Below are positions 7,894 through 56,502 of a DNA stretch of 64,000 bases, piece by piece (positions within the stretch are counted from its first letter, which is position 1; every line of letters begins with the position of its first letter). The DNA is from an uncultured Methanosarcinales archaeon (GTDB lineage: Archaea > Nanobdellota > Nanobdellia > Woesearchaeales > JACPBV01). The stretch is from NCBI GenBank assembly GCA_964577685.1, contig CAZNZT010000008.1, forward strand, positions 761-64,760. Reading direction: 5' to 3'. The notes under the pieces are model-generated. The model was not told the origin of the DNA and did no database searches. It saw nothing but the letters and a program-made list of their open reading frames with translations. A program made the position numbers and the translations under genes.

Positions 7894-7897
7894 ATTT

Positions 7898-23311: not shown

Positions 23312-23653
23312 ATGGGAAGAGGTAGACCTCCAAAAAGCCAAATAAGACAGAATATTATTGAGATTTTATACTTCCTAAGAGAAGGATATGGATACAACAT
23401 TCATAGAATATACAACAAAATATTCCCTTCTGTCACGATGAGGGTGATATATTACCACCTCAAAAAAGGGTTAAACTTAGGTGAATTTAAAATAAAAAAA
23501 ATAGAAAAAGAAAAGGGGAACTTCTCATGGGGTTCTGAAGCTGAAAAAATTTATTATACGCTTGGAAAAGAAGCTAGACCAACCGGAAACCTAAGAGTTA
23601 AAGAGTTCCTTGAAAAAAATAAACCAGATCATCTTTCTTTTAACAAATTATAA
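23312..23653 (+). CDS. Winged helix-turn-helix DNA-binding protein (putative transcriptional regulator)
   Basis: 'IIEILYFLREGYGYNIHRIYNKIF...RVIYYHLKKGLNLGEF' fits a wHTH recognition helix plus wing. Convergent with, and 25 nt overlapping, the large Cys-rich gene. Confidence 0.45.
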   Translation: MGRGRPPKSQIRQNIIEILYFLREGYGYNIHRIYNKIFPSVTMRVIYYHLKKGLNLGEFKIKKIEKEKGNFSWGSEAEKIYYTLGKEARPTGNLRVKEFLEKNKPDHLSFNKL

Positions 23654-32786: not shown

Positions 32787-33086
32787 ATGTCAAGCATAGG
32801 ATATTGTCTAGGTATTGTAGCACCTTATTATAATCTAGCACTCGTGATAATTGTCACTATTTTATTTCTGAGGCTGTTTAGCTTATCAAACAAAGGAGTG
32901 TATATAAAACCATGGAAAATATTATTCCTAGCAATCCTAGTATATATAGTAGAAGAAATAATAAACATTATGGAAACAGCAAATCTGATTACAGTATCAA
33001 GTCTTTTATTTCCTTTTCTTGAGATGATAATAATTAGTTTATTTATATATATGCTTCTCTTACAGAAAGAGCATACAAAAAAATGA
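32787..33086 (+). CDS. Small 3-TM membrane protein (paralog of the preceding gene)
   Basis: 99 aa, tandem duplicate. Its stop overlaps the start of the pilin-like gene. Confidence 0.4.
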   Translation: MSSIGYCLGIVAPYYNLALVIIVTILFLRLFSLSNKGVYIKPWKILFLAILVYIVEEIINIMETANLITVSSLLFPFLEMIIISLFIYMLLLQKEHTKK

Positions 33087-33337
33087 ATAAAAAAGCATTG
33101 TCTCCTCTAGTAGCAACGATACTATTAGTCTTATTTTCCCTAATAATAGGCACAATAACAATGAACTGGGGAAAAAGCTATGTTGAAAAAATAGAAGAAG
33201 AACCAAAAATAAGAGAAAGTGCCATAATCATAAGCATTAAAGACATTGATACACCGCTGAAGGAATTGCAAATTCAATATATAACAGGGAAAATAACAAA
33301 AGAAGAATATCTAAAAAAAGAAAAAGAGCTAATCTAA
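33083..33337 (+). CDS. Archaeal type IV pilin-like protein (class III signal peptide) fused to a C-terminal SHOCT-like motif
   Basis: N-terminus 'MNKKALSPLVATILLVLFSLIIG' matches the archaeal prepilin pattern (KK-[GA]-x-SP-[VIL]-[VI]-ATxLL, cleavage after the K/A). C-terminus 'ITGKITKEEYLKKEKELI' resembles SHOCT. Confidence 0.5.
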   Translation: MNKKALSPLVATILLVLFSLIIGTITMNWGKSYVEKIEEEPKIRESAIIISIKDIDTPLKELQIQYITGKITKEEYLKKEKELI

Positions 33338-38418: not shown

Positions 38419-39840
38419 CTAATTAGAAGAGTATCTCAAATCCGGATTTCTAGCAGCTCTAACAGCATCTAATCTACCAACTGGCATACTAAACGGAGCA
38501 TTATGTAATAGTTCTGGTTTATTCTCAGCCTCAGCCCTAATCTTCCCCATTACCCTGATAAAATAATCCAATGTTTCTTTGCTTTCAGTTTCAGTAGGTT
38601 CTATCATCATGGCTCCATGAACAATTAGCGGAAAATATATTGTCATAGGATGTATTCCATAATCAATCAATCTTTTGGCTATATCTGTGGTAGTAACACC
38701 ATTAGGTAAAGCTTCATCACTTAAGACAAATTCATGTTTACATAAGGAATTATAAGGAAGCACATAAACGTCCTTTAATTTCTCTTTTAGGTAGTTTGCA
38801 TTCAAAACAGCATTTTCTGCAACTTTTCTTAAACCATCCGAACCAACAGCCCTAATATAAGAATAGGCTTTCACCGTAACACCAAAATTACCATAAAAAG
38901 ACTTTACCTTCCCAATTGATTTGGGGTTATTAATAAGATTATATTTGCCTTCTTTAAATATAATCCTCGGATTAGGTAAAAATCTTTCTAAGGTCTTTAC
39001 AACACCTACTGGCCCAGAACCAGGACCCCCACCACCATGTGGAGTTGAAAAGGTTTTATGGAGATTTAGGTGGATAATATCTATTCCCATATCTGCTGGT
39101 TTCGTTACACCTAGAAGAGCATTCATATTTGCTCCATCCATATAAACTAGACTTCCATTTTTGTGCATAATCTTTGTTATTTCTAATATATGCTCTTCAA
39201 ATATACCCAAGGTGTTTGGTATTGTTAACATTATAGCTGCAACATCTTTGTTGATAATCTTTTTCAATTCATCCAAGTCAATTTGTCCTTTATCGTTACT
39301 TTTTAAGGTCATATTCCTAAAACCACACATAGTAGAAGATGCAGGATTTGTCCCATGAGAGCTATCTGGTGTGATTATTATTTTCCTGTCTTCCCCTTTT
39401 TCATTAAAATATGCTTTTATAATCATGAGTCCTGTTAATTCGCCATGTGCTCCTGCAGCAGGTTGTAAAGTGAAAGCGTCCATCCCAGTAATCTCACATA
39501 ACATATTCTCGAGTTCATACATCAATCGCAAACAACCCTGCGCATTCGGCTGTAATGGATGACACTCAACGAAGCCCTCTAATTTAGCAATATCTTCATT
39601 TATCTTAGGGTTATACTTCATAGTGCAAGAACCAAGTGGATAGAAACCATTATCAACCCCAAAATTTCTTCTTGACAACTCTATATAATGCCTTATCAAT
39701 GTTACCTCATCAACCTCTGGTAATTCTAATTCATCTCTTAAATTATCTTTACTTATTATACCATCTCTTTTAGGAACATCCAACTCTGGTAAAGAAACTC
39801 CTATCCTACCTGCTCTGCTTTTTTCAAATATCAATTGCAT
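38419..39840 (-). CDS. gcvPB: Glycine dehydrogenase (decarboxylating) subunit 2
   Basis: PLP-lysine region 'IIHLNLHKTFSTPHGGGGPG'. 473 aa. Confidence 0.9.
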   Translation of the reverse strand: MQLIFEKSRAGRIGVSLPELDVPKRDGIISKDNLRDELELPEVDEVTLIRHYIELSRRNFGVDNGFYPLGSCTMKYNPKINEDIAKLEGFVECHPLQPNAQGCLRLMYELENMLCEITGMDAFTLQPAAGAHGELTGLMIIKAYFNEKGEDRKIIITPDSSHGTNPASSTMCGFRNMTLKSNDKGQIDLDELKKIINKDVAAIMLTIPNTLGIFEEHILEITKIMHKNGSLVYMDGANMNALLGVTKPADMGIDIIHLNLHKTFSTPHGGGGPGSGPVGVVKTLERFLPNPRIIFKEGKYNLINNPKSIGKVKSFYGNFGVTVKAYSYIRAVGSDGLRKVAENAVLNANYLKEKLKDVYVLPYNSLCKHEFVLSDEALPNGVTTTDIAKRLIDYGIHPMTIYFPLIVHGAMMIEPTETESKETLDYFIRVMGKIRAEAENKPELLHNAPFSMPVGRLDAVRAARNPDLRYSSN

Positions 39841-41159
39841 TTTCTTATTATTTCAACAAGCCTGTCCATCTCCTCTTTTGTATTTAACTCGGTAACACAA
39901 AACAACAAACAATTATTTAGCTCTGGATAATAAACACCAATATCTAATCCCCCAAGTATACCACTATCCAAGAGCTTTTTACTAACAGTTTTAGCATCTT
40001 TTACCTTCACTAAAAACTCATTGTAAAATTCTTGTTCAAAAACTATACTACAACCTATTTCCTCCAATCTATCAGCCAAATAATGTGCCTTATATAAACA
40101 CAACTCAGCAAGTTTTCTTAACCCATTTTTTCCAAGAGCAGAAAGATAAACAGTAGCAGCCAAAGCACATAATGCCTCATTACTACATATATTTGAAGAG
40201 GCTCTCTCTCTTCTTATATGCTGTTCCCTAGCCTGTAAGGTCAGTATATATCCAATATTACCGTTTCCATCTGTTGTCTTACCAACTAACCTTCCAGGAA
40301 GCTGTCTTAGATATCTATGTTTTGTAGCCATAATACCCAAATATGGTCCTCCAAAGCTAACTGGATTACCAAGGCTTTGTCCTTCACCAACCACAATATC
40401 AGAATGCTCTCCAGGAGGTTTTAATATACCCAAAGAAGTTGGTTCAATAACACATACATTTAACAAACTTCCATTCCTATGTAGAATATCAGAGATTCCT
40501 CTAAGATTTTCTACACAACCAAAAAAATTAGGTTGCTGTAATAAAAGGGTGGCTGTCCTTTTGTTTATCTTTAATTTTAAATCATCTATAGAAGTTACTC
40601 CATCAGAATAATCCACTTCTACAAATTTAAGGTTATGTGCCCAACAGTAAGTTTTTACAACCTGTCTATAGTCTGGATGTATGGCTCTAGACACAAGTAT
40701 TTCATTTCTCTTTGTAATATTTGAAGCCATTATACAGCTCTCAGCCAAGGCTGTTGCACCGTCATATAATGAAGCATTTGAGACATCCATACCAAATAAA
40801 TTACATATCATTGTTTGATACTCGTATATAGCTTGCAATATCCCCTGAGACATCTCAGGCTGATATGGGGTGTAAGTAGTATAAAATTCACTTCTAGCTA
40901 CAATATGCTTCACAACAGAAGGGATAAAATGTTTATATGCACCAGCTCCAATAAAGTAAGAGAAATCTACTTTATTCATCTTACTTATCCCCTTCAACAA
41001 TTCAAATAATCCGACCTCAGACATAGAAGCTGGAATCTTTAGTTTATCCTTTAAAATAATCCTATCAGGTATATCCCTAAATAACTCGGATATGCTCTTT
41101 AATCCAATTTCTTTGAGCATTGCTTCTCTATCCTTATTAGTATTAGGAATAAAATCCAT
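39831..41159 (-). CDS. gcvPA: Glycine dehydrogenase (decarboxylating) subunit 1
   Basis: 'YTPYQPEMSQGILQAIYEYQTMICNLFGMDVSNASLYDGATA', typical of the GcvPA N-terminus. Overlaps gcvPB by 10 nt. Confidence 0.9.
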   Translation of the reverse strand: MDFIPNTNKDREAMLKEIGLKSISELFRDIPDRIILKDKLKIPASMSEVGLFELLKGISKMNKVDFSYFIGAGAYKHFIPSVVKHIVARSEFYTTYTPYQPEMSQGILQAIYEYQTMICNLFGMDVSNASLYDGATALAESCIMASNITKRNEILVSRAIHPDYRQVVKTYCWAHNLKFVEVDYSDGVTSIDDLKLKINKRTATLLLQQPNFFGCVENLRGISDILHRNGSLLNVCVIEPTSLGILKPPGEHSDIVVGEGQSLGNPVSFGGPYLGIMATKHRYLRQLPGRLVGKTTDGNGNIGYILTLQAREQHIRRERASSNICSNEALCALAATVYLSALGKNGLRKLAELCLYKAHYLADRLEEIGCSIVFEQEFYNEFLVKVKDAKTVSKKLLDSGILGGLDIGVYYPELNNCLLFCVTELNTKEEMDRLVEIIRKCN

Positions 41160-41172
41160 ATTACACCCAAGG

Positions 41173-41574
41173 TTATTTGTGCTCCTTTAAGAAATTTTCA
41201 TATTCTTCAGCACTCATTAGTCTTTCTATCTCTTCCTTATTCTCAATCTTTAACTTCACAATCCATCCTTTCCCGTATGGATCCTGATTGATAATTTCTG
41301 GCTTTTCTCCAAGTTCATTATTCACTTCTAAAACCTCTCCACTAACTGGAGAAAAAACATCTGAAACAGATTTTACACTTTCAATTGTAGCTATTTGTTT
41401 GCCCTGCTCTACTCTCTTACCTTTTTCTGGCAACTCAACAAACACAATATCTGTAAGTTGTTTCTGAGCAAAATCAGTTATGCCTACTATTCCTATATCC
41501 TGTTCTATCCTAATCCACTCATGCTCTTTTGTATACTTCAATTCTCTTGGATTTTCCATATTACCACCCCACAC
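41173..41574 (-). CDS. gcvH: Glycine cleavage system H protein
   Basis: Lipoyl-lysine block 'IATIESVKSVSDVFSPVSGEV'. Confidence 0.9.
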   Translation of the reverse strand: MWGGNMENPRELKYTKEHEWIRIEQDIGIVGITDFAQKQLTDIVFVELPEKGKRVEQGKQIATIESVKSVSDVFSPVSGEVLEVNNELGEKPEIINQDPYGKGWIVKLKIENKEEIERLMSAEEYENFLKEHK

Positions 41575-41589
41575 AAAACCACTCAGTTA

Positions 41590-42702
41590 TTATTTATTAA
41601 GTTTTCCTTTATACTTATAAAACGGTCTTTCAACAATCTTAGCTTTATGCAGTTCTCCCCTTATTTTAATCTCAATCAAACTCCCAACATCAGCTTCAGC
41701 AATATCAAGGATAGCTAAACCAATTGGTTTTTTAAAAGTAGGGGAAAACGTTCCTGAGGTGACTAATCCTATCTTTCTATTATTCTTAAAGACATCATAG
41801 TTAAATCTGGGAATGGCTTTGTCTAAAAGCTCAAACGGAACAACAATCCTTTTTAGATCCCTCTTGGCTTCCAAAAGTGCTTCCTTACCTATAAAATCCT
41901 TAGAAAAATCAACAACAAACCCTATTCCTGCTTCAAAAGGATTTATATTTTCATTAAGCTCATGCCCGTAGAGACTATAACAAGCCTCTATTCTTAATGT
42001 ATCTCTTGCTCCAAGGCCAACAGGTTTTAATCCTAAATCTTTTCCACACTTTAGAAGCCTATTCCACACATCAATGGCTCTCCCTGAGTTAAAATATATC
42101 TCAAACCCATCCTCAGCTGTATAGCCTGTTCTTGATATCACAAAATTTTCATTGAAAAAAAATTTTTCAATAAAATCAAATCTCTTCAACAAAGAAAAAT
42201 CAAAATCAAAACTATCATTGATTATCTGTTCAGAAAAAGGTCCTTGTAAATCTATCTTCGCTATGTTATTGCTTATATTAATAATAGTAACATCATCAAA
42301 AAAATCCTTATTCTTCATAAGCCAACCAAAGTCCTTGTCAACATTACTCGCGTTTACAACCAGCATAAATTTTTTATCATTAAATTTATAAACAAATAAA
42401 TCATCAATAACACCACCCATCGGATTGCATAAACAACAATAAAAAGACTTATTACAATCAAACTTACTTATGTCTCTTGTTACCATTTTTTGCAAAAAAT
42501 CATGAGCTCTCTCACCTTCAACAAGAATCTCACCCATATGGGAAACATCAAAGAGTCCTGCTTTATTTCTTGTTGTATTATGTTCTTCAATAATACTCGT
42601 ATAAGAAACAGGCATTAGCCATCCACCGAACTCTATAATTCTTGCTCCAAGTTTTAAATGTAAGTCGTACAGTGGTGTTTTCTTTAAATCAGGCATAAAC
42701 AA
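41590..42702 (-). CDS. gcvT: Aminomethyltransferase (glycine cleavage system T protein)
   Basis: 'KKTPLYDLHLKLGARIIEFGGWLMPVSY' N-terminus and GcvT folate-binding domain. Confidence 0.9.
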   Translation of the reverse strand: MFMPDLKKTPLYDLHLKLGARIIEFGGWLMPVSYTSIIEEHNTTRNKAGLFDVSHMGEILVEGERAHDFLQKMVTRDISKFDCNKSFYCCLCNPMGGVIDDLFVYKFNDKKFMLVVNASNVDKDFGWLMKNKDFFDDVTIINISNNIAKIDLQGPFSEQIINDSFDFDFSLLKRFDFIEKFFFNENFVISRTGYTAEDGFEIYFNSGRAIDVWNRLLKCGKDLGLKPVGLGARDTLRIEACYSLYGHELNENINPFEAGIGFVVDFSKDFIGKEALLEAKRDLKRIVVPFELLDKAIPRFNYDVFKNNRKIGLVTSGTFSPTFKKPIGLAILDIAEADVGSLIEIKIRGELHKAKIVERPFYKYKGKLNK

Positions 42703-43531: not shown

Positions 43532-44116
43532 ATGGATTTAGTAACAAAAAATATTATAAATGGCTTTGCCAATATTAGAAAATCAATCTTCTCTGACCCA
43601 TCAATATTCTGGTTCTTAACACCAATCTTTCTCTTCTGGTTAATATTGGAAATATACTTCAGCAAGTATAAAAAAGAAAAACTTGGTTGGAATACAGCTC
43701 TCGGAAATGGATTAAGCATATTCTGGCTTTTGATAATCTGCCTTAGACATCTATTTGAAAACAGGATGGAAAATTTCAGCTGGGGTAGGTTTATAGCGCT
43801 TATCTTAATTCTTTGTTATGTAGTTTTTATAATATTCAACTCATTCACCCATAAATTAAAGGAAAGTATATCTTTCCTGCTAGCAGCACCAACATTAGTA
43901 TATTATTTATCAGCCGTAACTATACTTTGGACATTCGGAGGTCTGGAAATAACCTTTTGGGTAACAATAGACCTAATACTCATATACATAGTTATTCTCC
44001 TGATTGATTTAATATTAAGAAAGCTAATAAAAGGAAAAGAACAGAGCATAAATGGGCTTGATATTAGCCTTTTGGATAATAATTCAGTGGACCTAAATAA
44101 AAGACAAAAATTCTAA
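43532..44116 (+). CDS. Hypothetical polytopic membrane protein
   Basis: 194 aa, 5-6 predicted TM helices, no motif recognised. Confidence 0.35.
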   Translation: MDLVTKNIINGFANIRKSIFSDPSIFWFLTPIFLFWLILEIYFSKYKKEKLGWNTALGNGLSIFWLLIICLRHLFENRMENFSWGRFIALILILCYVVFIIFNSFTHKLKESISFLLAAPTLVYYLSAVTILWTFGGLEITFWVTIDLILIYIVILLIDLILRKLIKGKEQSINGLDISLLDNNSVDLNKRQKF

Positions 44117-44121
44117 GTCTC

Positions 44122-44901
44122 CTAAAAAGAAGCTCTATTTTTTTTATAAAAAACAAAAAAAGAAATAGAAAAAACAAAGATACTAACAATCTGTGATGCT
44201 GTCAAAAAACCAAACAGATACCAATTATACGACCTAAAAAACTCTATCGCAAACCTTGTAGCAGAGTAATACATTAAAACAAATAATGTCAAAAAACCAT
44301 CGTATCTCTTTTTTTTGTCCAACCACCTTAATATAAAAAATAAAACAAGTAAATTAGCTATAATATATAATCTAGCAGGATGAAGTGGCTCAGTGATAAT
44401 CTTGGTGTTAGAATATCTAACAATAGCCCATGGTAGGTTTGTTGGTTTGCCTCTACAACTATCATTCGATACAAAACAACCTAGCCGAGCAATAGACAAT
44501 ATAATAGGAAAATATAAAGCAAAAACATCAGAATATTTCCAAAAATTTATTTTTTTGAACTTACAATAAGAATAAATAGAAAGTACAGCACCCAAAAGCC
44601 CACCATAAAGAACAAGACCAGAACGCCAAAACATAAAGAACTTAATTATCCTCTGAAAAAATGTATAGCTTCTATTCCATGTCCAAGGACCAAAATAATA
44701 AAAAAGCCTTGCACCAGCTATGATACCAACTATTGAAAATAAAATAAGATAAAACATATCTCTCTTGTTAAGTTTTCTCTTTTTCGCTTCATGAAATACA
44801 AGAAAAATCCCTACTAGAGTAGCAAGATAAGCAAATGTTCTATACACCTCTATCCTAAAAAAAATAAAATCAAATCTTTTTAATTGTGGAAAATAGAACA
44901 T
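44122..44901 (-). CDS. lgt: Prolipoprotein diacylglyceryl transferase (bacterial-type Lgt)
   Basis: Lgt blocks: 'GARLFYYFGP' (G.R.GY..), 'FWRSGLVLYGGLLGAV' (W.GG...HGGLIG), signature 'ARLGCFVSNDSCRGKPTNLPWAI' (GR.G(N/C)F.N.E..G.PT.LPW), and C-terminal 'HPARLYIIANLLVLFFILRWL...GFLTLFVLMYYSATRFAIEFFR', which aligns closely with E. coli Lgt '[22 protein letters not shown]...GLFLIGYGAFRIIVEFFR'. Confidence 0.8.
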   Translation of the reverse strand: MFYFPQLKRFDFIFFRIEVYRTFAYLATLVGIFLVFHEAKKRKLNKRDMFYLILFSIVGIIAGARLFYYFGPWTWNRSYTFFQRIIKFFMFWRSGLVLYGGLLGAVLSIYSYCKFKKINFWKYSDVFALYFPIILSIARLGCFVSNDSCRGKPTNLPWAIVRYSNTKIITEPLHPARLYIIANLLVLFFILRWLDKKKRYDGFLTLFVLMYYSATRFAIEFFRSYNWYLFGFLTASQIVSIFVFSISFFVFYKKNRASF

Positions 44902-44902
44902 C

Positions 44903-45124
44903 TTAGGATTCTACTTCACTTTCATCTGTAATATTGTCTTCCTCATCATCATCATTGCAAGAATCACAACTATCACAGTCATCACAGCTATCACAGTCAT
45001 CACAGCTATCACAACCTTCACAGCCACTTAAAGTAGTTGTTATAAAGAATAAAGAGATATACAATAATATAAATACCAAAGCACACAATTTCTTGTAATC
45101 TATTTTATCTGGTTTAGCACCCAT
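44903..45124 (-). CDS. 73-aa putative lipoprotein: signal peptide plus lipobox (L-S-G-C), then a Cys/Asp repeat (CDSCDDCDSCDDCDSCDSC) and an acidic tail
   Basis: 'KKLCALVFILLYISLFFITTTLSGCEGCDSCDDCDSCDDCDSCDSCNDDDEEDNITDESEVES'. Ends 1 nt before the lgt start on the same strand. Cys-x-x-Cys repeats suggest metal binding. Confidence 0.55.
   Translation of the reverse strand: MGAKPDKIDYKKLCALVFILLYISLFFITTTLSGCEGCDSCDDCDSCDDCDSCDSCNDDDEEDNITDESEVES
44958..45020. repeat. Tandem roughly 12-nt repeats (GTCATCACAGCT-like) that encode the CDSCDD repeats of the mini-lipoprotein
   Basis: 'tatcacagtcatcacagctatcacagtcatcacagctatcaca' is directly visible. Confidence 0.5.
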
Positions 45125-45168
45125 ATTACTAAAATTGTTTATAATATTGCTTATATATAAAATTTACC

Positions 45169-46087: not shown

Positions 46088-47734
46088 TTATTTGCCATAA
46101 CAATTTTTACCTTTGAACTTTTGCCTATACGCTTCCAATAAAGGAGTAAGATTTCTTCTTGGTGGTTTTGACTCATTTAGCCTCTTCTTTATTTCCTCTT
46201 CGCTTAGTCTTACATCCAATTTTCTATTAGGTATATCAATATCTATTATATCATTGTCTCTTATTGCTGCTATTGGGCCATTGTTATACGCCTCCATCTC
46301 AACATGACCTATACATGGTCCTGAAGTCCCTCCAGAAAATCTTCCATCTGTAATCAAAGCAACCCTCTTGTAGCCAGCACCTTTTATGGCATCTGTTGGT
46401 GTTAACATCTCTGGCATTCCAGGTGCTCCAGCAGGTCCTTGATAAGGTAAAACAACAACATCCCCTTCGTTTATATCTTTTGATTCTATTGCCTCCAACA
46501 GTTCTTCTTCAGTATAAAAAACCTTTGCTGGCCCAGAATGTTTCATCATACTTGGATCAACTGCTGTTTGTTTAATAATAGCACTATTAGCAAGATTCCC
46601 CTTCAAAACAGCTATCCCTCCTTCTTTCATATATGGATTATCTAAACCCCTTATTATCTCTCCATCAAGAACTTTTCCTTCTTCTGCTATTTGTTTTATT
46701 GACTTCAAATTAACAGTAACAGAATCTTTTAATAAGCTCTTTAATCTATTCAATACAGCAGGTATTCCACCAGCTTTGTCTAAATCAGCTATTTCATATG
46801 GCCCTGCGGGAATTATCTTGCAGATATTAGGTGTTTCTCTTGATATTTTATCAAAAATTTCAACATCAATCTCAATCCCTGCTTCTCTTGCTATAGCAGG
46901 TATGTGCAATACTGTATTTGTAGAACCACCCATTGCCATATCCACCCTTATTGCATTTTCGAAGGCATTTTTAGTCATTATATCTCTTGGCTTAATATCC
47001 TTCTTAACCAACTCAACTATCCTCCTCCCGGTTTCATATGCCTGTTTCTTCTTTAGCGGATTTAAAGCTGGAGTAGTAGCACATCTTGTTAGTGACATTC
47101 CAAGTACCTCAGTAACAACAGCCATAGTATTAGCTGTATATAATCCAACACAAGAACCAGCACCACAACACATCAAAGATAACATACCCTCAGCTTCCTC
47201 TGCCTTGAGTTTACCAGCCTTAACCTCACCAACTAAACCAAAACCCTCAATCGGATGATGTTTCTTCCCCTCCACTACATTCGCTTTCATTGGCCCACCA
47301 GTAAGTATAATAGCTGGTAAATTTAATCTTCCAGCGGCCATTAACATTCCAGGTGTTATTTTATCACAATTTGTTACACCAACCCATCCATCAAGAGAAT
47401 GGGATAAAGTCATGATTTCAATATTATCAGCTATGTGTTCTCTAGAAGGCAAACTCAAACGCATTTCTACATGCATAGCGATACCATCACATACCCCAGG
47501 AACCCCCCATACAAAGGGAATACCGCCAGCATCCCTAATCCCATTCATTACCTCTTCAGTCAATTCATTTAGGTGTATGTGTCCTGGTATAATATTATTA
47601 TAGCTGTTGGCTACTCCTATAAAAGGCTTATCAGATTCCAAATCATCTTTTTTTACACCTGCAGAAAGCAATAACGCCCGATGGGGTAGTGTTTCTATTC
47701 TTTTCTTTAAAACATCTGATCGCATATTAATCAC
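46088..47734 (-). CDS. ilvD: Dihydroxy-acid dehydratase
   Basis: 'CDKITPGMLMAAGRLNLPAIILTGGPM', 'TDGRFSGGTSGPCIGHVEMEA' (IlvD/EDD signatures). Confidence 0.9.
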   Translation of the reverse strand: MINMRSDVLKKRIETLPHRALLLSAGVKKDDLESDKPFIGVANSYNNIIPGHIHLNELTEEVMNGIRDAGGIPFVWGVPGVCDGIAMHVEMRLSLPSREHIADNIEIMTLSHSLDGWVGVTNCDKITPGMLMAAGRLNLPAIILTGGPMKANVVEGKKHHPIEGFGLVGEVKAGKLKAEEAEGMLSLMCCGAGSCVGLYTANTMAVVTEVLGMSLTRCATTPALNPLKKKQAYETGRRIVELVKKDIKPRDIMTKNAFENAIRVDMAMGGSTNTVLHIPAIAREAGIEIDVEIFDKISRETPNICKIIPAGPYEIADLDKAGGIPAVLNRLKSLLKDSVTVNLKSIKQIAEEGKVLDGEIIRGLDNPYMKEGGIAVLKGNLANSAIIKQTAVDPSMMKHSGPAKVFYTEEELLEAIESKDINEGDVVVLPYQGPAGAPGMPEMLTPTDAIKGAGYKRVALITDGRFSGGTSGPCIGHVEMEAYNNGPIAAIRDNDIIDIDIPNRKLDVRLSEEEIKKRLNESKPPRRNLTPLLEAYRQKFKGKNCYGK

Positions 47735-47761
47735 CTTAATCTAATTTTTTATTAATATTAT

Positions 47762-48385
47762 TTATTTAACATAATTCTTTAGGGTCCCTATCCCCTCAAT
47801 TTTAATCTCTATTGTATCTCCTTTCTGCATTGGACCAATACCTGCAGGAGTTCCTGTAGAAATAATATCACCAGGCAATAAAGTCATTACCCTTGATATA
47901 AAAGATACCAACTCCTCAACCTTAAATATAAAATTTGAAGTACTAGAATCTTGTTTTAACTCTCCATTAAGAAAACTTTGAATTTTAAGATTATTGGGAT
48001 TTACATCCTTAACAACAGTTGGGCCAACCGGACAGAATGTATCAAAAGACTTTGCCCTTGTCCACTGTCCATCTTTTTTTTGTAAATCTCTCGCTGTTAC
48101 ATCATTTATACAGGTAAAGCCATCAATATGTTCCATAACCTCTCCTTCCCCGATATCTTTTATCCTATCTTTTATTATAACTCCAAGCTCTGCTTCATAA
48201 TCAACCCTTCTAGACATTTCTGGGTAGATTATATTTTCCTCCGGGCCTATCAGTGTTGTAGGTGGTTTAATAAATAATATTGGCTCTTCCGGCAAAGGCA
48301 TCCCTAATTCTTCAGCATGATCCCTATAATTCAAACCAACCAAAACTATCTTAGAAGGTTTATTTTTTAAAAAAGAAATATTCAT
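47762..48385 (-). CDS. Fumarylacetoacetate hydrolase (FAH) family protein
   Basis: '[17 protein letters not shown]', '[12 protein letters not shown]', '[14 protein letters not shown]' (FAH-fold metal and substrate motifs). Confidence 0.8.
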
Positions 48386-48390
48386 TTTAG

Positions 48391-49398
48391 TTATCTTTTT
48401 TTAAAGAGGTTTCTTATTTCTTCGCCGGTTATCTCAATTTGATGTTTTCCAATTTTTTCTCTGCTTTCCTTTAAAAAAGGCATTCCTTTTTTGTATTCTT
48501 CAACCCACTCCTTAGCAAATTCTCCACTCTCTATTTTCCTTAACGCCTCCTTCATCCTCTCTTTAACATCTTCCCCTATAATCCTATGTCCGACAGCCCA
48601 CATTCCATACTCTGCTGTATTGCTAATAACCTCTGCCATTCTTTTAATTCCTCCTTCCCATATAAGATCCACAATAAGTTTCATTTCATGCACGCACTCA
48701 AAGTACGCCATCTCTGGAGGATAACCAGCTTCTACCAAAACCTCAAAACCATTTTTCATTAATTCAACTAGACCTCCACATAAAACACACTGTTCACCAA
48801 ATAAATCCTCATATGTTTCCTGCTCAAAGGTACACTCCAGAACGCCTGCTTTTGTAAAATGCATAGCCTTAGCCAATGCTAAAGCCATTTCTCTCGCTTT
48901 TCCAGAAGCATTTTGGTAAACTGCAACTAGTGCTGGAACACCAAAACCTTCAAGATAGGCTTTTCTTTCTTCTGTTCCTGGAGCTTTTGGTGCAACCATG
49001 ATAACATCCACATCACTCGGAGGTATTATTCTCTTAAAACAAATATTAAAACCATGGGAAAAATAAAGCGTCTTTCCTGCTTTTACATAAGGCTTGATTT
49101 GATTTTCATAAATATCTGGTTGAACTTCATCCGGCAAAAGGATTTGGATAATATCAGCTTTTTCTGCGGCCTTGTCTATTGAAAATACCTCAAACCCATC
49201 TTCCTTTGCTTTATTCCAACTAGGATTTTGTTTCCCACCTATAACCTCCGTTTCTCCAATTATTACACTAACCCCAGAATCTCTAAGCATATTTGCTTGG
49301 GCAGACCCCTGTGCTCCGTAACCAATAGTTGCAACCACTTTACCCTTTAAAATACCTTCATCTATATCTTCATCATACAATACTTTCATAACAACCAA
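48391..49398 (-). CDS. ilvC: Ketol-acid reductoisomerase
   Basis: NADPH Rossmann '[21 protein letters not shown]'. '[39 protein letters not shown]'. Confidence 0.9.
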
Positions 49399-49601
49399 CC
49401 CCCTAGACTATTTGATTTTTTATTAAAAATTTTCTATTAGAGGTAATCATACTCCATTTATAAATATTGCTCTTACTTAAATCTCTCAAGGACATCTTCA
49501 CCCGCCATTCCTTTCCTAACACCTAGCTCTTTTGCTCCTGTTGGCTTTTGTTGAAACACCACAAAAACAAATCCCCCTAACAATCACTTTTTCTACTTTT
49601 A

Positions 49602-50729
49602 TCATTTTAATTTTTTTATTATAGCATCCCCCATTTCAGAAGTCTTCGCTGTCCCACCAAGGTCTTTTGTTTTCACTTTCCCTTCTTTTAAAACTTCTTC
49701 TATTGCTCTAATTACCTGCTTAGCTGATTCCTCCTCTCCAAGTTCTTCTAACATCATAGAACCAGCCCAAATTGTTGCTATTGGATTTGCTATACCTTTT
49801 CCCTTATATTTTGGAGCAGAACCATGTATTGGCTCAAACATTGAAATACCATCTGGGTTAATATTTCCTCCAGGAGCAAGTCCTAATCCACCCTGAATCA
49901 TAGCACCGAGGTCTGTTATTATGTCCCCGAACATATTTGGAGTCACAATCGTTTGAAACCATTCTGGATTTTTAACAAACCACATAGTTATAGCATCAAC
50001 AAAATTAAACTCATAATTTATCCCGGGATAATCCCTAGCAACTTCTTCTAAAATCTCACGCCAAAAAGAATAAACATAATCTAAAACATTTGCCTTATCA
50101 ACAGATGTAAGTTTATCCCTCTTCTTCCTCTTTGTTAATTCAAAAGCATATTTTATAACCCTCTTTGCTCCTTCTCTACTTATAACCCCAATCTGATATG
50201 CTATCTCTGAACCCTGTGTATCTATATCCAATCCAAATTTTATTTTATAAAGACTCCTTACTATTTCAAGTTCTTGTTTCGATTTTCCTATTTTGGCTCT
50301 ATTTCCAATACCGACATAAAAGTCTTCTGTATTCTCTCTAACTACATCAAAGTTTATATCAGTAGGCCCTTTATCTCTCAACGGAGTTTTAACCCCCCCT
50401 AATAGCCTCACAGGCCTTAGATTAATAAATTGATCAAAATAAAATCTCATCTTAAGTAAAATCCCCTTCTCTAGAATTCCTGGCTTAACCCTAGGATCGC
50501 CCAAAGCACCTAAGTAAATAGCATTACATTTCTGTTCAATCTCTTTTAGGGTTTCTTCCGTTATAAGTTCTCCTGTCTTTAAATATTTCTCTGCCCCATT
50601 ATCATATTCCCTCCATTCAATATCAAAACCATTAAGATCAGCTACTCTTTCTATTACCTTAACTCCTTCTGCTATTATCTCTGGACCTATACCATCCCCC
50701 GGAATTAAAGCAATTCTATATTTTTTCAT
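49602..50729 (-). CDS. leuB: 3-isopropylmalate dehydrogenase (isocitrate/isopropylmalate DH family)
   Basis: '[15 protein letters not shown]', 'NLRPVRLL', '[26 protein letters not shown]'. Operon context with leuCD. Confidence 0.8.
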
Positions 50730-51213
50730 ATTGAGTCTTTATATAGTTTAACAAACCTCCTGCCTTTATAATATCCAAAGCAAATTTAGGAAAAGGATTA
50801 AATTTAAATTCTTTCCCATTATTCAAATTTTTTATTATTCCCCTCCTTAAATCGATTTCTAAATTATCTCCATCATTGACTTTATTTACAACATCCTTAC
50901 ACTCTATGGCCAAAAATCCATTGTTAATAGCATTCCTAAAAAATATCCTTGCAAAACTTTTAGCAATTACTGCACTTATACCAGCTCCCTTCAAAGCCCA
51001 TACGGCGTGCTCTCTAGAAGAACCACAACCAAAATTTTCACCAACAACGATAAAATCTCCCTTACTAACTTTTTTAACAAAATCCCTATCCAAATCCTCC
51101 ATAGCATGTTTTGCAAGTTCTTCCTCTTTATCTATATTCAAATATCTAGCAGGGATTATCTCATCAGTATTTATATGATCCTTCTTATAAACATGTGCTT
51201 TACCTTTCATCAT
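50716..51213 (-). CDS. leuD: 3-isopropylmalate dehydratase small subunit
   Basis: '[22 protein letters not shown]', '[17 protein letters not shown]'. Overlaps the leuB start by 14 nt and the leuC stop by 4 nt. Confidence 0.8.
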
Positions 51214-52469
51214 AAGTACTCCCTCGGGTCAGTAATTTTTCCTTCTATGGCTGAGGCCGCTACTGTTGCAGGACTAGCCAAATATACCTTAGAATCTGGA
51301 TGACCCATTCTCCCAGTAAAATTTCTATTGGTTGAACTAATACAAACCTCTCCCTCAGCTAAAATACCCATATGACCACCCAAACAAGCCCCACATGTTG
51401 GAGTTGAAACTACTGCACCAAACTCTATAAATATGTCTATCAGGCCTTCCTTATTTGCTTGCTTCCATATCTCTGTTGTCGCAGGAACTATAATCATTCT
51501 TGTCCCTTTCGCTATTTTATTTCCATCTAAAATTGAAGCAGCAATCCTCAAGTCTTCAATTCTTCCATTCGTACAGCTTCCTAGATATGCTTGATCTATC
51601 TTAATATTCTTAATCTTAGAAATAGGAACCCCATTACTTGGCAAATTAGGAAAAGCCACAATAGGTTCTAAATCGGATATATCATACTCCTTAATCTCTC
51701 TATACACAGCATCTTTATCTGATTTAAACATTTCAAATTTTTCTTTTGTTCTTTCTTTAACATACTCCAAAACTTTTTTATCTGGTTCCATTATACCAGA
51801 TTTAGCACCTGCTTCTATTGCCATATTTGTTATTGTCATCCTAGCTTCTACCGAAAGTTGCTTTACGACCTCTCCAGTAAATTCCATAGCTTTGTATAAT
51901 GCCCCATCTACCCCAATATCTGATAATATGTGTAATATAATATCTTTTGAATAAACACCTTCAGGTACCTTTCCATCCAATACGAACTTTATTGACTCAG
52001 GAACCCTAAACCACAGCTTGCCAGTAGCAATAGCTGCAGCTATATCAGTCGAACCAACCCCTGTTGAGAATGCTCCAAAAGCACCATATGTACATGTATG
52101 AGAATCTGCTCCAACAATCAAACTACCAGGTACCACATACCCTTGCTCTGGCAATAGAGCATGGCATATTCCATGATTACCCACCTCATAATAATTCCTG
52201 ATATGAAACTCCTCAACCCATTTTCTTAATCTTTTGGTTAATTGTGCTGACTTTATATCCTTATTAGGCACAAAATGATCAGGTGTAACAACTATCTTAT
52301 CAGGATTAAACGCTTTCTTAATACCAAACTTATAAAGCATATCTATAGCCGGAGGAGTAGTTACATCATGACAGACTATTACATCAATATCTGCATTAAT
52401 TAATTCTCCAGGCTTGACTTTATCCTTATTCGCGTGTTTTGCAAGTATTTTCTCTGTTATTGTTTGCAT
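51210..52469 (-). CDS. leuC: 3-isopropylmalate dehydratase large subunit (aconitase family)
   Basis: '[11 protein letters not shown]', '[11 protein letters not shown]', '[11 protein letters not shown]', Fe-S ligands '[11 protein letters not shown]' and '[10 protein letters not shown]'. Confidence 0.85.
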
Positions 52470-52471
52470 TT

Positions 52472-52744
52472 TTAACCAAACTTATAATATTTTTTTACGG
52501 GCTTATTAATTTTCCATTTACATTTTAAGCCTCTAGGGAAAACAACTAAATCTCCTTTTCCAAACTTCACATGCTCGCCATCCTCTGTTATTACTTCAAC
52601 ATCTCCCTCAATTAGTAAACAAGTTTCCTTCTCATCGTACTCCCACGGAAACTCTGAAATCCCTTTCTCCCATATACCCCATGATTTTGCTTCTTCTTTT
52701 TCTTTTTCAGTTGGTTTTCTTACTTCTATCCTCACCAAAATCAC
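52472..52744 (-). CDS. Small cupin-fold protein embedded in the leu/ilv operon
   Basis: 90 aa. '[31 protein letters not shown]' is a cupin beta-barrel motif pair. Translationally coupled on both sides. Confidence 0.5.
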
Positions 52745-53226
52745 CCCCTAGATATAGCAGTTACGCCAGTTCTAGATATTTCTCTTATCCCAAATTGCTT
52801 CATTAATTCAATAAAAGCATCAATCTTAGCAGGAACACCTACTAATTCCGCTGTTACAGACTTAGGAGTTATATCTACAATCTTTGTCTTATATATTTTA
52901 GTATAACGTAAAATATCCTCTTTTGCTTTCTTATTAGGTATGGCTATCTTAACTAAACAAAGTTCTCTTATAACTGATCTTTCCTCCGGCATTTCTATAA
53001 CTTTTATCGTATTTATTAACTTATTAATTTGTTTTTTAACTTGCTCAACTGTTTTATCATCACCAAAAACAGTAATTACCATCTTTGATATTCCAGGGGT
53101 TATTGTCTTGCCAACAGTAATCGTATCTATGTTAAAGCCCCTCCTAGCAAACATACCTGCTATTTTTGTCAACACACCAGGTTGATCTTCAACAAGCATA
53201 GCTATAACATTCCTTCTTTCCTTCAT
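52741..53226 (-). CDS. ilvN: Acetolactate synthase small (regulatory) subunit, ACT domain
   Basis: 'RNVIAMLVEDQPGVLTKIAGMFARRGFNIDTITVG' (IlvH/IlvN ACT signature). Confidence 0.8.
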   Translation of the reverse strand: MKERRNVIAMLVEDQPGVLTKIAGMFARRGFNIDTITVGKTITPGISKMVITVFGDDKTVEQVKKQINKLINTIKVIEMPEERSVIRELCLVKIAIPNKKAKEDILRYTKIYKTKIVDITPKSVTAELVGVPAKIDAFIELMKQFGIREISRTGVTAISRG

Positions 53227-53228
53227 TT

Positions 53229-54944
53229 TTATTCCCTCTCAAAAAATTTACCAGGTGCAGGCATACATCCTCCAAAAGCATCCTTCAAATGTCCTCCAGG
53301 TGCCAACATTGGTAAGATGTTCACTTCTTCTTCTACCTGAACATCAATAATTGTAGTAACATCATTACTAATTGCTTTCTTTATTGCCGGTTCAAGCTCA
53401 GATTCTCTCTCAACTCTTATTCCCTCTAATCCATAAGCTTCTGCTACCTTAACGAAATCAGGAGTTCTACCTAGATAGACATTTGAGTATCTCTTACCCA
53501 AAAAAAGTTCTAACCACTGTCTAACCATCCCTAGATACGAATTATTCATTATAATAGGTATTATCTTGATATTCTCCTCTTTTATTGTCCCCAATTCTTG
53601 TATAGTCATTTGGAAAGAACCATCACCATCTATTAAAAAAACATTTGAACTTGGTTTTGCAACTTTTGCTCCTATTGCCGCTGGTAAACCAAACCCCATC
53701 GTCCCTGCACCACCAGAGCTTATGAATGTTCTTGGTTTTGAACATTTAATAAAATGTCCTGCAAACATCTGATGCTGACCAACACCAGTAACCACAATAT
53801 CATCTGGCTTCATTATCTTATTTATATTGCTCATAACAACTCTTGGATGTATTTTCTTTGTTTTATGCAATGGAACACAACCATCACAAATTTGTTTGTA
53901 CCTCTTTATTTTATTTATCCAACCTTCTTTCTCCTTTATAGTTTTCTTTTTGATAGTATTTATTAATGCAATTAGTACCTCTTTTGCATCACCAACTATA
54001 GGTATATCCACCTCAACATTTTTTCCAATTTCAGCAGGATCAATATCTGCATGTATAATCTTTGCATTTTCTGCGTATGTCTTCAAATTTCCAGTTATCC
54101 TATCACTAAACCTACAACCGATTGCTATTAGAAGGTCTGCATTCAATGTTGCATAATTTGCTATCTTCCTTCCATGCATCCCAACCGTCCCTAAACTCAA
54201 AGGATGTCTCTCATCAAATACCCCTTTACCCATGAAGGTAGTAGTAACTGGAATCTTAGTTAAATTAACAAACTCCCTCAACTCCTTATGTGCATTTGAT
54301 ATAACAACTCCCTGACCAACCAACAATAAAGGCCTTTCTGAGTTTAATATTGCCTCTACAGCAAGTTTTATCTGGACTGGATTTGGTTTTATAGTTAATT
54401 TAAAGCCAGGGATTGCAACATCTCTAGGAATCGGTTCTGTTACTTCCTCTACCTGAATATCTTTAGGCAAATCAATATAAACAGGACCAGGCCTACCGCT
54501 TTGTGCTATCTTAAAAGCTTTCATGATAGTTTCAGCAATTTTATTTGCATTTCTAATCTGAAAATTATGTTTTGTTATTGGCAATGTTATACCCATCATA
54601 TCTGTTTCTTGGAATGCATCATTTCCAATTAGAGTTGTGGGAACCTGTCCACCAAAGGCTATTATTGGAACAGAATCCATATAAGCGTCCGCTATTCCAG
54701 TAACCAAATTACAAGCACCAGGACCAGAAGTTGCTATACATACACCTGCTTTCCCAGATGCTCTTGCATATCCTTCTGCTGCATGTGCTGCCCCTTGCTC
54801 ATGTCTCACTAAAACGTTCTTTATTTTATCTTTATGCTCTAAAAAAGCATCAAACAACGGTATAACTGCCCCACCTGGAAATCCAAATGTGACATTTGTT
54901 TTTTCCCTTATCAACATCTTAATTATCATATTTGCTCCATTCAT
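53229..54944 (-). CDS. ilvB: Acetolactate synthase large (catalytic) subunit
   Basis: TPP enzyme. 'GFPGGAVIPLFDA', TPP motif 'IDGDGSFQMTIQELGT...NNSYLGMVRQWQ'. Confidence 0.9.
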   Translation of the reverse strand: MNGANMIIKMLIREKTNVTFGFPGGAVIPLFDAFLEHKDKIKNVLVRHEQGAAHAAEGYARASGKAGVCIATSGPGACNLVTGIADAYMDSVPIIAFGGQVPTTLIGNDAFQETDMMGITLPITKHNFQIRNANKIAETIMKAFKIAQSGRPGPVYIDLPKDIQVEEVTEPIPRDVAIPGFKLTIKPNPVQIKLAVEAILNSERPLLLVGQGVVISNAHKELREFVNLTKIPVTTTFMGKGVFDERHPLSLGTVGMHGRKIANYATLNADLLIAIGCRFSDRITGNLKTYAENAKIIHADIDPAEIGKNVEVDIPIVGDAKEVLIALINTIKKKTIKEKEGWINKIKRYKQICDGCVPLHKTKKIHPRVVMSNINKIMKPDDIVVTGVGQHQMFAGHFIKCSKPRTFISSGGAGTMGFGLPAAIGAKVAKPSSNVFLIDGDGSFQMTIQELGTIKEENIKIIPIIMNNSYLGMVRQWLELFLGKRYSNVYLGRTPDFVKVAEAYGLEGIRVERESELEPAIKKAISNDVTTIIDVQVEEEVNILPMLAPGGHLKDAFGGCMPAPGKFFERE

Positions 54945-54954
54945 ACTTAATCCC

Positions 54955-56502
54955 TCACTTGAAATTATTTTTTCTCTGAAAATTAAGAGCTTTATTTATT
55001 CCTTTTATCAAAGCCCCTGCAGATGCCATAATAACATCACTATTAACAGACTCCGCTTTGAATAAATTTCCCTTATTATCCTGCACCTTTATAGAAACCT
55101 CTGCTAAGGCATCTGTTCCACCAGTTATAGCTTTCAATTCATATTCCTTTAACCTTATCGATGAACCAACTATTTTCTTGATAGCATCACTAACAGCATC
55201 AACAGGCCCTACCCCAGAGCCCTTACTAATTTTCTTTTTTCCATCAATTACTAAGACAACTATTGCCTCTGGCTTTATTTTATTTCCAGTCAAAACTTTT
55301 ATTTCCTCCAATCTTATTATTTCATCTTCTTCTAATTCACCTATGATATCAGTTGCAATTGCAATTACATCCTCCCTCATAATCTGTTTTTGTTTATCTG
55401 CTAATTCCTTAACCTTAGATGTGATTTTATTTATTTGCTCTTCATTAAGGTCGTAACCAGAATCTCTTAAAATAGCTTCAATTGCGTGTCTTCCGGAATG
55501 CTTACCAATCACAAGATTCGTACCAGTCCATCCTATATCTTCTGGATTCATAATCTCATATGTAAATTTATGGCTTAGAACACCATGCTGATGAATTCCT
55601 GCTTCATGAGCAAAAGCATTTTGACCAACAATAGCCTTATTTCTCTGCACAGCTATTCCAGTCAGAGATGAAACAAGTCTTGATGTCCTAAATATTTCTT
55701 TTGTATTTACGCTAGTATAAAATCCTCTAAAAAAGTCCTTTCTCGTCTTTATATTCATCACAACCTCTTCCAAGCTACAATTCCCTGCTCTTTCTCCAAT
55801 CCCATTTATTGTACACTCTATCTGGGTCGCTCCATTTCTTATTGCTTCCAATGAATTCGCAACAGCCAGACCTAAATCGTTATGACAATGCACACTAACC
55901 ACAACACCCCTTCTTCTTATTATATCGCCAATCTTATCAAAAACATACTTTATTCTCTTACCAAATTCTTCTGGTTCTGCATACCCTACAGTATCTGGGA
56001 TATTTATTGTATTAGCTCCAGCCTCAATTGCAGCCTTAATTACATCACACATATAATCCAAATCCGTCCTTGCTGCATCTTCTGGAGAAAACTCAATATC
56101 CCTACATAGAGATTTAGCATATTTCACAGCCCTAACAACAATATCTATTACCTCCTCCTTAGTCTTTCTTAATTTCTCTTTTATATGGATATCAGATGTA
56201 GCTATAAAAGTATGAATTCTTGGCTTTTTTGAATACATCAATGCTTCCCATGCCCGTTTAATGTCTTCTTTCTTTGTCCTAGCTAAGCCACATACTATTG
56301 GCTTCTTTATCTCCTTAGCTATAAGCCTTACTGCCTCAAAATCACCATCAGAGCTTATAGGAAACCCAGCCTCAATCACATCAACACCCAACCTCTCAAG
56401 CTGCTTAGCTATTATAAGCTTCTCTTTCACTGTAAGAGAAGCGCCAGGAGATTGTTCGCCATCCCTTAATGTAGTATCAAAAATTATTATTTTCTTCTTC
56501 AT
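54955..56502 (-). CDS. leuA: 2-isopropylmalate synthase (LeuA/CimA family, with C-terminal regulatory domain)
   Basis: 'IFDTTLRDGEQSPGASLT', 'VHCHNDLGLAVANSLEAIRNGATQIECTINGIGERAGN'. 515 aa including a LeuA dimerisation/allosteric domain. Confidence 0.85.
   Translation of the reverse strand: MKKKIIIFDTTLRDGEQSPGASLTVKEKLIIAKQLERLGVDVIEAGFPISSDGDFEAVRLIAKEIKKPIVCGLARTKKEDIKRAWEALMYSKKPRIHTFIATSDIHIKEKLRKTKEEVIDIVVRAVKYAKSLCRDIEFSPEDAARTDLDYMCDVIKAAIEAGANTINIPDTVGYAEPEEFGKRIKYVFDKIGDIIRRRGVVVSVHCHNDLGLAVANSLEAIRNGATQIECTINGIGERAGNCSLEEVVMNIKTRKDFFRGFYTSVNTKEIFRTSRLVSSLTGIAVQRNKAIVGQNAFAHEAGIHQHGVLSHKFTYEIMNPEDIGWTGTNLVIGKHSGRHAIEAILRDSGYDLNEEQINKITSKVKELADKQKQIMREDVIAIATDIIGELEEDEIIRLEEIKVLTGNKIKPEAIVVLVIDGKKKISKGSGVGPVDAVSDAIKKIVGSSIRLKEYELKAITGGTDALAEVSIKVQDNKGNLFKAESVNSDVIMASAGALIKGINKALNFQRKNNFK

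Follow-up and report, generated by a model that had tools for sequence, protein, structure and literature searches.

Does prolipoprotein diacylglyceryl transferase (Lgt), an enzyme of bacterial lipoprotein biogenesis, also reside in archaea? Three publications state that archaea lack Lgt or that none has been reported from them (Nat Commun 2025, PMC12462473; mBio 2026, PMC13251419; JBC 2026, PMC13631571), and they argue in part that the lipids of archaea made another invention necessary, AliA/AliB. Those surveys covered RefSeq or arCOG genomes, with metagenome-assembled genomes (MAGs) excluded. We analysed a 64-kb stretch of the metagenomic contig CAZNZT010000008.1, hereafter the window, in which a gene for an Lgt homologue directly follows a gene for a tiny Cys-rich protein. 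The reading we favour, with a probability of roughly 60%, is that a lineage of Woesearchaeota has long held a bacterial-type Lgt in a two-gene operon of its own, under an archaeal promoter and behind a tiny secreted substrate, where it would act by the mechanism proposed below. A literature search for an archaeal or DPANN Lgt found no report. The two genes are as follows:

44122 to 44901, minus strand: Lgt-family (prolipoprotein diacylglyceryl transferase-like) integral membrane enzyme, 259 aa (PF01790 profile match and structure model)
44903 to 45124, minus strand: 73-aa lipobox mini-protein with a Lys-bearing n-region, a hydrophobic h-region, Leu-Ser-Gly-Cys (Cys35) and a 39-aa mature part (list of open reading frames, signal-peptide/lipobox scan)

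The Lgt homologue and its catalytic residues

The initial annotation had called the 259-aa open reading frame (ORF) an Lgt, and both profile and structure comparison bore this out. The PF01790 (LGT) profile covered residues 12-251 of the ORF (profile positions 6-238 of 240) at an E-value of 1.6e-46 and 159 bits, versus a gathering score of 24.9, and phmmer against the PDB retrieved E. coli Lgt (5AZB; E 5e-11). An AlphaFold2 (AF2) model of the homologue, for which six clade sequences served as input, reached a predicted local distance difference test (pLDDT) of 79.3 and a predicted template-modelling (TM) score of 0.76. Its single significant PDB match in Foldseek was again 5AZB (E 5.6e-7, probability 1.00, TM 0.75/0.69), so that the model shows the Lgt fold, a seven-transmembrane (7-TM) body with arms and head. 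Of the two profiles that the initial annotation had proposed for a search, PF01790 thus scored far above its gathering score, whereas TIGR00544 gave only 97.7 bits, under its equivalog cut-off of 118.9; the ORF also stayed under the cut-off of each remaining NCBIfam Lgt model. The window ORF is a real Lgt-family enzyme and a divergent member of the bacterial family, sharing family, fold and 7-TM body with E. coli Lgt (5AZB/5AZC, PF01790).

Lipoprotein lipidation in the archaeon Haloferax volcanii involves the components AliA and AliB (arCOG02177 and arCOG02178; PMC12462473, PMC13631571), whose similarity to PF01790 is only marginal (PMC12462473). The clear PF01790 match of the window enzyme argues for Lgt proper and against AliA/AliB. 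Both systems would presumably yield the same product, an archaeal surface protein lipidated in thioether linkage at its lipobox Cys, and the use of two conserved arginines is proposed for each. Some archaea with predicted lipoproteins lack AliA/AliB (PMC12462473).

To compare residues, we aligned the window protein with E. coli Lgt and 127 homologues. E. coli Y26, R143, G154, Y235, R239, E243 and R246 are kept, as Y25, R139, G151, Y212, R216, E220 and R223, and with them the Arg-Arg/Glu/Tyr hydrogen-bond network of the bacterial enzyme (R143, R239, E243, R246, Y235 and Y26). H103 of the HGGL motif is replaced by Tyr and N146 of the signature by Cys, as in 92 and 105 of the 127 aligned homologues, respectively. 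Both replacements have been described as natural variants in bacteria, and the YGG and GCF variants seen in the window protein are common in non-proteobacterial Lgt (PMC13251419); in E. coli, Lgt H103Y gave no complementation (PMC4728403). The signature as a whole is not intact: the window protein has A-R-L-G-C-F-V-S-N-D-S-C-R-G where E. coli has G142-R-L-G-N-F-I-N-G-E151-L-W-G154. The GR.G(C/N)F signature named in the initial annotation is therefore missing in its first position, the protein reading A-R-L-G-C-F without G-R. This exchange of G142 for Ala occurs in the window protein only, and the close relatives P0002 and P0003 keep Gly. E151 is replaced by Ser, with a neighbouring Asp, within an NDSCRG motif specific to the subclade P0001-P0004, in contrast to NGELWG or NGCCxG in bacterial Lgt. 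The same subclade has Arg in place of G27. E202 is Ile in the window protein, at a position that varies across the subclade.

From its residues, the homologue is probably active, and the substitutions at G27, G142, E151 and E202 may have altered its activity or specificity. Those four substitutions, together with the score under the TIGR00544 cut-off and a host whose lipids are probably unusual or scavenged (PMC8421398), could also mean that the homologue now catalyses something else, for instance remodelling of lipids or transfer to an acceptor that is not a protein, with the mini-protein as a partner or regulator. This we consider very improbable: R143, R239, E243, R246, Y235, Y26 and G154 are all kept, and what is conserved in the partner, an h-region and then Gly-Cys, is precisely what marks an Lgt acceptor.

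A separate observation concerns the same signature in bacteria. Six Desulfobacterota-type lgt genes (L015 6007, L017 6004, L020 5971, L022 5971, L023 5902 and L025 5926) contain an in-frame TGA at the first Cys of the signature GRLGCFSAG-[TGA]-CYG, which is the E. coli E151 position, and Lgt homology runs on beyond it to a normal stop. These six genes probably encode a selenocysteine-containing Lgt.

A Cys-rich mini-protein encoded directly before Lgt

What could such an enzyme act on? The initial annotation had pointed to a 73-aa ORF with signal peptide and lipobox 1 nt upstream, and we found coordinates and spacing as claimed: the mini-ORF ends in TAA, followed by 1 nt and the Lgt ATG. The protein reads MGAKPDKIDYKKLCALVFILLYISLFFITTTLSG up to the predicted lipobox cleavage point and CEGCDSCDDCDSCDDCDSCDSCNDDDEEDNITDESEVES after it. 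With KK in the n-region, a hydrophobic stretch and LSG/C (the slash, here and below, marking the predicted cleavage point), it conforms to the acceptor pattern [LVI][ASTVI][GAS]C, and thus shares with the acceptors of bacterial Lgt a lipobox-type signal peptide. The 39 residues of the mature part include 8 Cys, 19 Asp/Glu and zero Lys/Arg, and are encoded by the following elements:

45020 to 45031, minus strand: lipobox codons Leu-Ser-Gly-Cys, with the Cys35 codon at 45020-45022 (sequence reading)
44963 to 45024, minus strand: 3.4 copies of an 18-nt tandem repeat, from which CDSCDD repeats with Cys at each third position are translated (repeat search)
44906 to 44962, minus strand: acidic C-terminal tail with an N-I-T sequon (translation)

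In a six-frame scan of the window, the mini-protein was the sole credible signal-peptide-plus-lipobox ORF. Searches of Pfam and NCBIfam gave no significant family for it, and metallothionein families remained unmatched even at E<=1. It resembles metallothioneins and Cys-rich bacterial lipoproteins (TIGR04201, Myxo_Cys_RPT) in its small size, its Cys content of ~20% and its CxxC spacing; unlike metallothioneins, it is a predicted exported, lipobox-bearing and extremely acidic protein rather than a cytosolic one.

To find relatives, we searched exhaustively, without profiles, with the window Lgt, which returned 22 cluster representatives at E<1e-30; a metagenome scan contributed three additional loci. 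The closest proteins are 45-53% identical and come from short metagenomic contigs. Mini-protein and Lgt occur as a pair in six divergent loci (the window, L005, L010, L057, L058 and L059), with 40-53% identity between the Lgt proteins. A small Cys-rich signal-peptide ORF precedes Lgt at every locus of this clade that offers upstream sequence (L005, L010, two copies in L057, L058 and L059). The mini-proteins directly upstream of Lgt, and one remnant, are:

L005: LSGADGCDSCDDCESC...
L010: FTTG/CSDCSYCEDC...
L057, two copies: FTSG/CEGCQSC... and FTTG/CGGCDIC...
L058: IAG/CSESGCSGGC...
L059: LSG/CDCSCDD...
L013: the C-terminal end of such a mini-ORF is all that remains upstream of Lgt

The distance from the mini-ORF stop to the Lgt start is 1, 1, 2, 4, 24 and ~200 nt in the six loci, and Lgt is translationally coupled to the mini-ORF in four of them. 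Alignment of the lipoboxes showed Gly at position -1 in all seven mini-proteins and Cys at +1 in six, and CxxC periodicity is preserved among the orthologues despite differing DNA. Most tails are acidic, and five of the seven mini-proteins carry an N-x-S/T sequon in the tail (NIT in the window, NSS in L005, NTS in L010, and NVS and a long sequon-rich tail in L057). Because acidic tails and sequons fit such a location, the mini-protein is predicted to be extracytoplasmic and N-glycosylated. That the pairing is conserved across six divergent loci makes it much stronger that the mini-protein would be the Lgt substrate. The textbook substrate of the initial annotation is thus favoured by the conserved pair and by the invariant Gly at -1, whereas the L005 orthologue, with Ala at +1, does not follow.

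Related bacterial loci are built differently. In ~30 of 41 such loci (L015-L054), tblastn with E. coli LspA found lspA and lgt as a pair, with lspA immediately before lgt. The same scan for mini-proteins on the 41 bacterial lgt loci found zero Cys-rich lipobox ORFs adjoining lgt. In contrast to this bacterial arrangement, the window locus has no lspA partner, and tblastn with E. coli LspA detected no Lsp-like gene in the 64-kb window or in any archaeal-clade locus. The lspA slot of related bacteria is therefore occupied here by the putative substrate gene.

The mini-protein could also be one abundant, co-transcribed substrate of a general housekeeping Lgt that lipidates all lipobox proteins. 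Many lipobox proteins are predicted for DPANN genomes (PMC12462473), and a second, larger one stands beside Lgt in L005: a 204-aa Cys-rich protein (5804-6418, minus strand, convergent with Lgt) with a canonical lipobox, LLIA/C, and a match to TIGR04201 (Myxo_Cys_RPT) at E 6e-7. L005 is the one case without a +1 Cys in the mini-protein, and it is just there that a second Cys-rich lipobox protein flanks Lgt. Clade members with Lgt and no mini-protein partner (P0130, P0143, P0005 and P0006) would likewise suit a housekeeping enzyme. However, tight stop-start coupling and an order conserved at 40-53% identity, which none of the 41 bacterial loci shows, speak for a closer tie, and the 64-kb window has no second lipobox ORF. 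A purely housekeeping role thus appears unlikely to us.

Alternatively, the peptide might be no single-site lipoprotein at all but multiply modified, either through poly-lipidation by the Lgt homologue or as a cofactor-like product or ribosomally synthesized and post-translationally modified peptide (RiPP) with ranthipeptide-type thioether cross-links. A Cys every third residue next to Asp/Ser would be in keeping with this, as would the L005 orthologue, which keeps the repeat without the +1 Cys, and the change of the Lgt signature to NDSCRG in P0001-P0004. One mini-protein of the seven also matched a freyrasin-like ranthipeptide model of NCBIfam at E 0.01, a weak, non-significant match that we judge to be noise. 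No radical-SAM (SPASM) or other maturase gene was called at any locus, and the peptide begins with a typical Sec/lipobox signal where a RiPP precursor would have its leader. We hold a modification of this kind to be improbable.

The pair is also preceded by a promoter-like element of its own. The spacer before the mini-ORF is 44 nt long and holds an A-rich stretch and TTTATATA, resembling a transcription factor B recognition element (BRE) and a TATA box:

45154 to 45168, minus strand: putative archaeal promoter of the pair, combining an A-rich stretch similar to a BRE with a TTTATATA box whose end lies 29 nt upstream of the ATG (motif comparison)

Equivalent BRE/TATA elements lie 21-29 nt upstream of the mini-ORF in all five orthologous loci, where the upstream genes differ. 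In the window, the BRE/TATA motif precedes 8 of 48 gene starts, versus 1.7% of random positions; ilvC is among the starts that bear it, whereas ilvD, AEC and Lgt are not. An A-rich BRE with a TTTAWATA box is seen 18-32 nt before start codons, for example at 2418, 2529, 27969, 34582, 43532, 45124, 49398 and 56802. Such a pattern points to transcripts that mostly have no leader or a short one, and it marks where operons are likely to begin, ilvC among them. A scan of the locus for sigma-70 promoters and terminators was uninformative, as promoter-like sites were fewer than in shuffles. The pair is best read as an archaeal transcription unit of its own with a putatively leaderless or short-leader mRNA. 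It is therefore not the tail of the ilv operon, and its attachment to an ilvC-FAH-ilvD-AEC unit in the initial annotation has to be given up: BRE/TATA elements stand 29 nt before its ATG, and the arrangement recurs in five relatives. Unlike bacterial lgt, the window gene is found in an archaeal host, under an archaeal promoter and translationally coupled to one tiny gene for a predicted substrate.

In relatives, a third gene adjoins the pair, which in the window lies 17 kb away:

23629 to 27000, minus strand: 1123-aa orphan Cys-rich protein with an N-terminal membrane anchor and 46 Cys

Homologues of this protein abut the pair in L005 (1396-4719, 50% identity), L058 (6-3092, 40%), L057 (2615-3334, 36%) and L010 (5-217, N-terminus only), and each of the 42 Cys in the L005 homologue has an aligned counterpart among the 46 of the window protein. 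It had no match in Pfam, NCBIfam or the PDB, and a single-sequence AF2 model was unusable (pLDDT 33). The conserved neighbourhood in relatives suggests that the lipidated peptide works together with this ~1100-aa surface protein. The enzyme and substrate were described as a self-contained module at first, which does not hold: the locus has no Lsp, and a large Cys-rich surface protein is the third conserved neighbour in relatives. We also considered as a module member the 194-aa membrane ORF at 43532-44116 (plus strand), which is convergent with Lgt, and rejected it; it had no family match and no tblastn match in L005, L058 or other relatives, and no similarity to E. coli LspA or to the ORF at the equivalent position of L005.

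An archaeal host and an old gene pair

Is the surrounding DNA truly archaeal? Archaeal genes lie on both sides of the pair within a few kb. The window encodes aIF5A, aRF1, Nre and an archaeal CCA-adding enzyme, and an eL43/RpoP/prefoldin cluster was identified by sequence reading. The archaeal surroundings first noted for aIF5A, aRF1 and RpoP are thus confirmed and extended by Nre, the CCA-adding enzyme, eL43 and prefoldin. The window aRF1 is 72-80% identical to proteins whose named members all belong to Candidatus Woesearchaeota or Nanoarchaeota; the organism is therefore a DPANN archaeon.

With a family known otherwise from bacteria and a contig assembled from a metagenome, a bacterial piece mis-joined into archaeal sequence, or bacterial contamination, has to be weighed. 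GC content is flat at ~0.33 across the 64-kb window. Lgt has a GC content of 0.291 and a GC content at third codon positions (GC3) of 0.223, and the mini-ORF has 0.329 and 0.230; both genes fall within the spread of the window genes, whose means are 0.334 and 0.257. An identical Lgt with the same neighbours (AEC transporter, mini-ORF, Lgt, 194-aa ORF, SpoU and GcvT) was found in ENA, two JGI samples and Logan assemblies. Because four independent assemblies, from different samples and assemblers, share this gene order and composition is uniform, a mis-join is excluded for practical purposes. The archaeal flanks, the host-like GC, GC3 and promoter type, and synteny kept in the divergent relative L058 on a 223-kb contig likewise rule out a chimera, which we regard as extremely improbable. 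The assignment of the contig to an archaeon in the initial annotation therefore stands, with the same junctions in four assemblies.

The relatives also speak to the age of the pair. On its 223-kb contig, L058 carries the mini-ORF, Lgt (47% identical), SpoU (57% identical), an M50 protease and aIF5A in window order, and L005 carries diphthine synthase and a copy of the 1123-aa ORF at 50% identity. This shared synteny places the module in the common ancestor of these Woesearchaeota: the pair is an old, vertically inherited feature of the lineage, not a recent insertion.

Where Lgt came from is less clear from the tree. We computed a neighbour-joining (NJ) tree of 384 Lgt sequences and bootstrapped it on 117 taxa with 60 replicates. 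The clade P0001/P0002/P0003/P0133/L058 had 73% NJ bootstrap, and deeper nodes appeared in 0-9 of the 60 replicates, so that the phylogeny proposed in the initial annotation to find a bacterial donor clade gave no supported deeper node. Grouping with Patescibacteria occurred in 37% of bootstrap replicates, and a link of the clade to them is only suggestive. A bacterial origin of Lgt is parsimonious because the family is otherwise bacterial, which is an argument from family distribution and not from the tree. Of the horizontal acquisition proposed at first, the bacterial origin thus stands as parsimonious, whereas a recent insertion does not agree with host-like GC and GC3 or with the Lgt-SpoU-M50-aIF5A synteny in L058. 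A scan of GTDB representatives found one archaeal genome with Lgt, Ca. Woesearchaeota Meg22_1618_Bin_98, in which a second, more classical Lgt (GRIGCFFNGCCFG) adjoins a tRNA-splicing endonuclease. Within the same broad clade, one short metagenomic contig, L062, has two tandem Lgt-family genes (136-882, 248 aa, and 897-1751, 284 aa).

Other features of the window concern the host. ORF order and sequence reading revealed a complete glycine-cleavage system and ilv/leu branched-chain amino-acid genes (38419-42702 and 46088-56502), a metabolism unusually rich for Woesearchaeota that recalls 'subgroup J' of PMC8421398. At 2529-5424 (plus strand), a histidine kinase is followed by a response regulator fused to a SpoIIE/PP2C phosphatase, a bacterial-style signalling pair. 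Two tRNA calls are over-long, an 84-nt 'tRNA-Tyr (ata)' of ARAGORN at 7811-7894 (plus strand) and a 107-nt Rfam tRNA at 19515-19621 (minus strand) that ARAGORN missed; both are probably intron-containing archaeal tRNAs. An 84-aa ORF at 33083-33337 (plus strand) starts with MNKKALSPLVATILLVLFSL, which has the look of an archaeal class III (type IV pilin-like) signal peptide, and a T2SSE-type ATPase lies near this pilin-like ORF, at 15015-17306.

A proposed lipidation route and its meaning

How might the pair work? The mini-protein would be inserted via Sec by its own signal peptide, and the Lgt homologue would bind an anionic glycerophospholipid, either phosphatidylglycerol or the archaeal analogue archaetidylglycerol, with the lipid phosphate held by the Arg139/Arg216 pair (E. 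coli R143/R239). The glyceryl moiety of the lipid would then be transferred in thioether linkage to Cys35, the first Cys past the h-region (LSG/C). This would leave a 39-residue hyper-acidic poly-thiol peptide, probably N-glycosylated, tethered to the outer face of the membrane, where it would most likely bind metal cations or carry out thiol chemistry alongside the large Cys-rich surface protein. The ground for this proposal is established here: family membership, fold, most catalytic-core residues, the archaeal host, the conserved pair with its promoter, and the absence of lspA at the locus. From there, we infer that the mini-protein is the substrate and is glycosylated, which lipid serves as donor, what becomes of the signal peptide, and a metal or redox function.

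Several points weigh against this reading. At the level of the enzyme, the homologue scores under the TIGR00544 equivalog cut-off, and mutation at G27, G142 or E151, positions that differ here, inactivates E. coli Lgt (PMC4728403). At the level of the substrate, the L005 orthologue has Ala in place of the lipobox Cys (LSGADGC), so that its first Cys follows A-D-G, a poor lipobox; three lipoboxes (L010 and both of L057) have Thr at -3 instead of Leu/Val/Ile; and the four clade members named above have Lgt without a mini-protein. No Lsp-like gene accompanies the pair at any archaeal-clade locus, and metal binding by the mini-protein is a guess from its composition. We know of no demonstration of bacterial Lgt chemistry on sn-glycerol-1-phosphate ether lipids. 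The lipid donor is a problem in another respect, as Woesearchaeota have been reported to be without geranylgeranylglyceryl phosphate (GGGP) and digeranylgeranylglyceryl phosphate (DGGGP) synthases, core enzymes of archaeal lipid synthesis (PMC8421398).

A more specific version of the proposal, which we put forward only tentatively and hold at somewhat less than even odds, is that the DPANN-clade Lgt co-evolved with, and became dedicated to, a family of tiny hyper-acidic poly-Cys peptides. Together with the large Cys-rich protein these would form a surface module not described before, for metal capture, redox chemistry or attachment, and the lipids used would be either archaeal ether lipids or scavenged host lipids.

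As a gene call, this Lgt is no novelty: automated pipelines already annotate MAG proteins of this kind as Lgt, and some archaeal entries for PF01790 that derive from MAGs are listed in public domain databases. What is new is that the archaeal context has been verified, that the conserved operon joins the enzyme to its putative substrate under a promoter of archaeal type, that lspA is missing from the loci and that there is a third partner. An Lgt in Woesearchaeota contradicts the published statements that Lgt is absent from archaea. It also draws attention to two families without annotation, one of poly-Cys lipobox peptides and one of ~1100-aa Cys-rich proteins, which probably both reside at the surface of DPANN cells. 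An operon of one enzyme and one tiny substrate would be a convenient minimal system for the study of acceptor recognition by Lgt, and a natural test case for Lgt acting on archaetidylglycerol, or on bacterial-type or scavenged lipids in lipid-auxotrophic DPANN cells. The conserved pair shows that a bacterial enzyme can persist for long in an archaeal cell and, if the more specific version of the proposal is true, Lgt would be the first enzyme of bacterial lipoprotein biogenesis known to work in Archaea.

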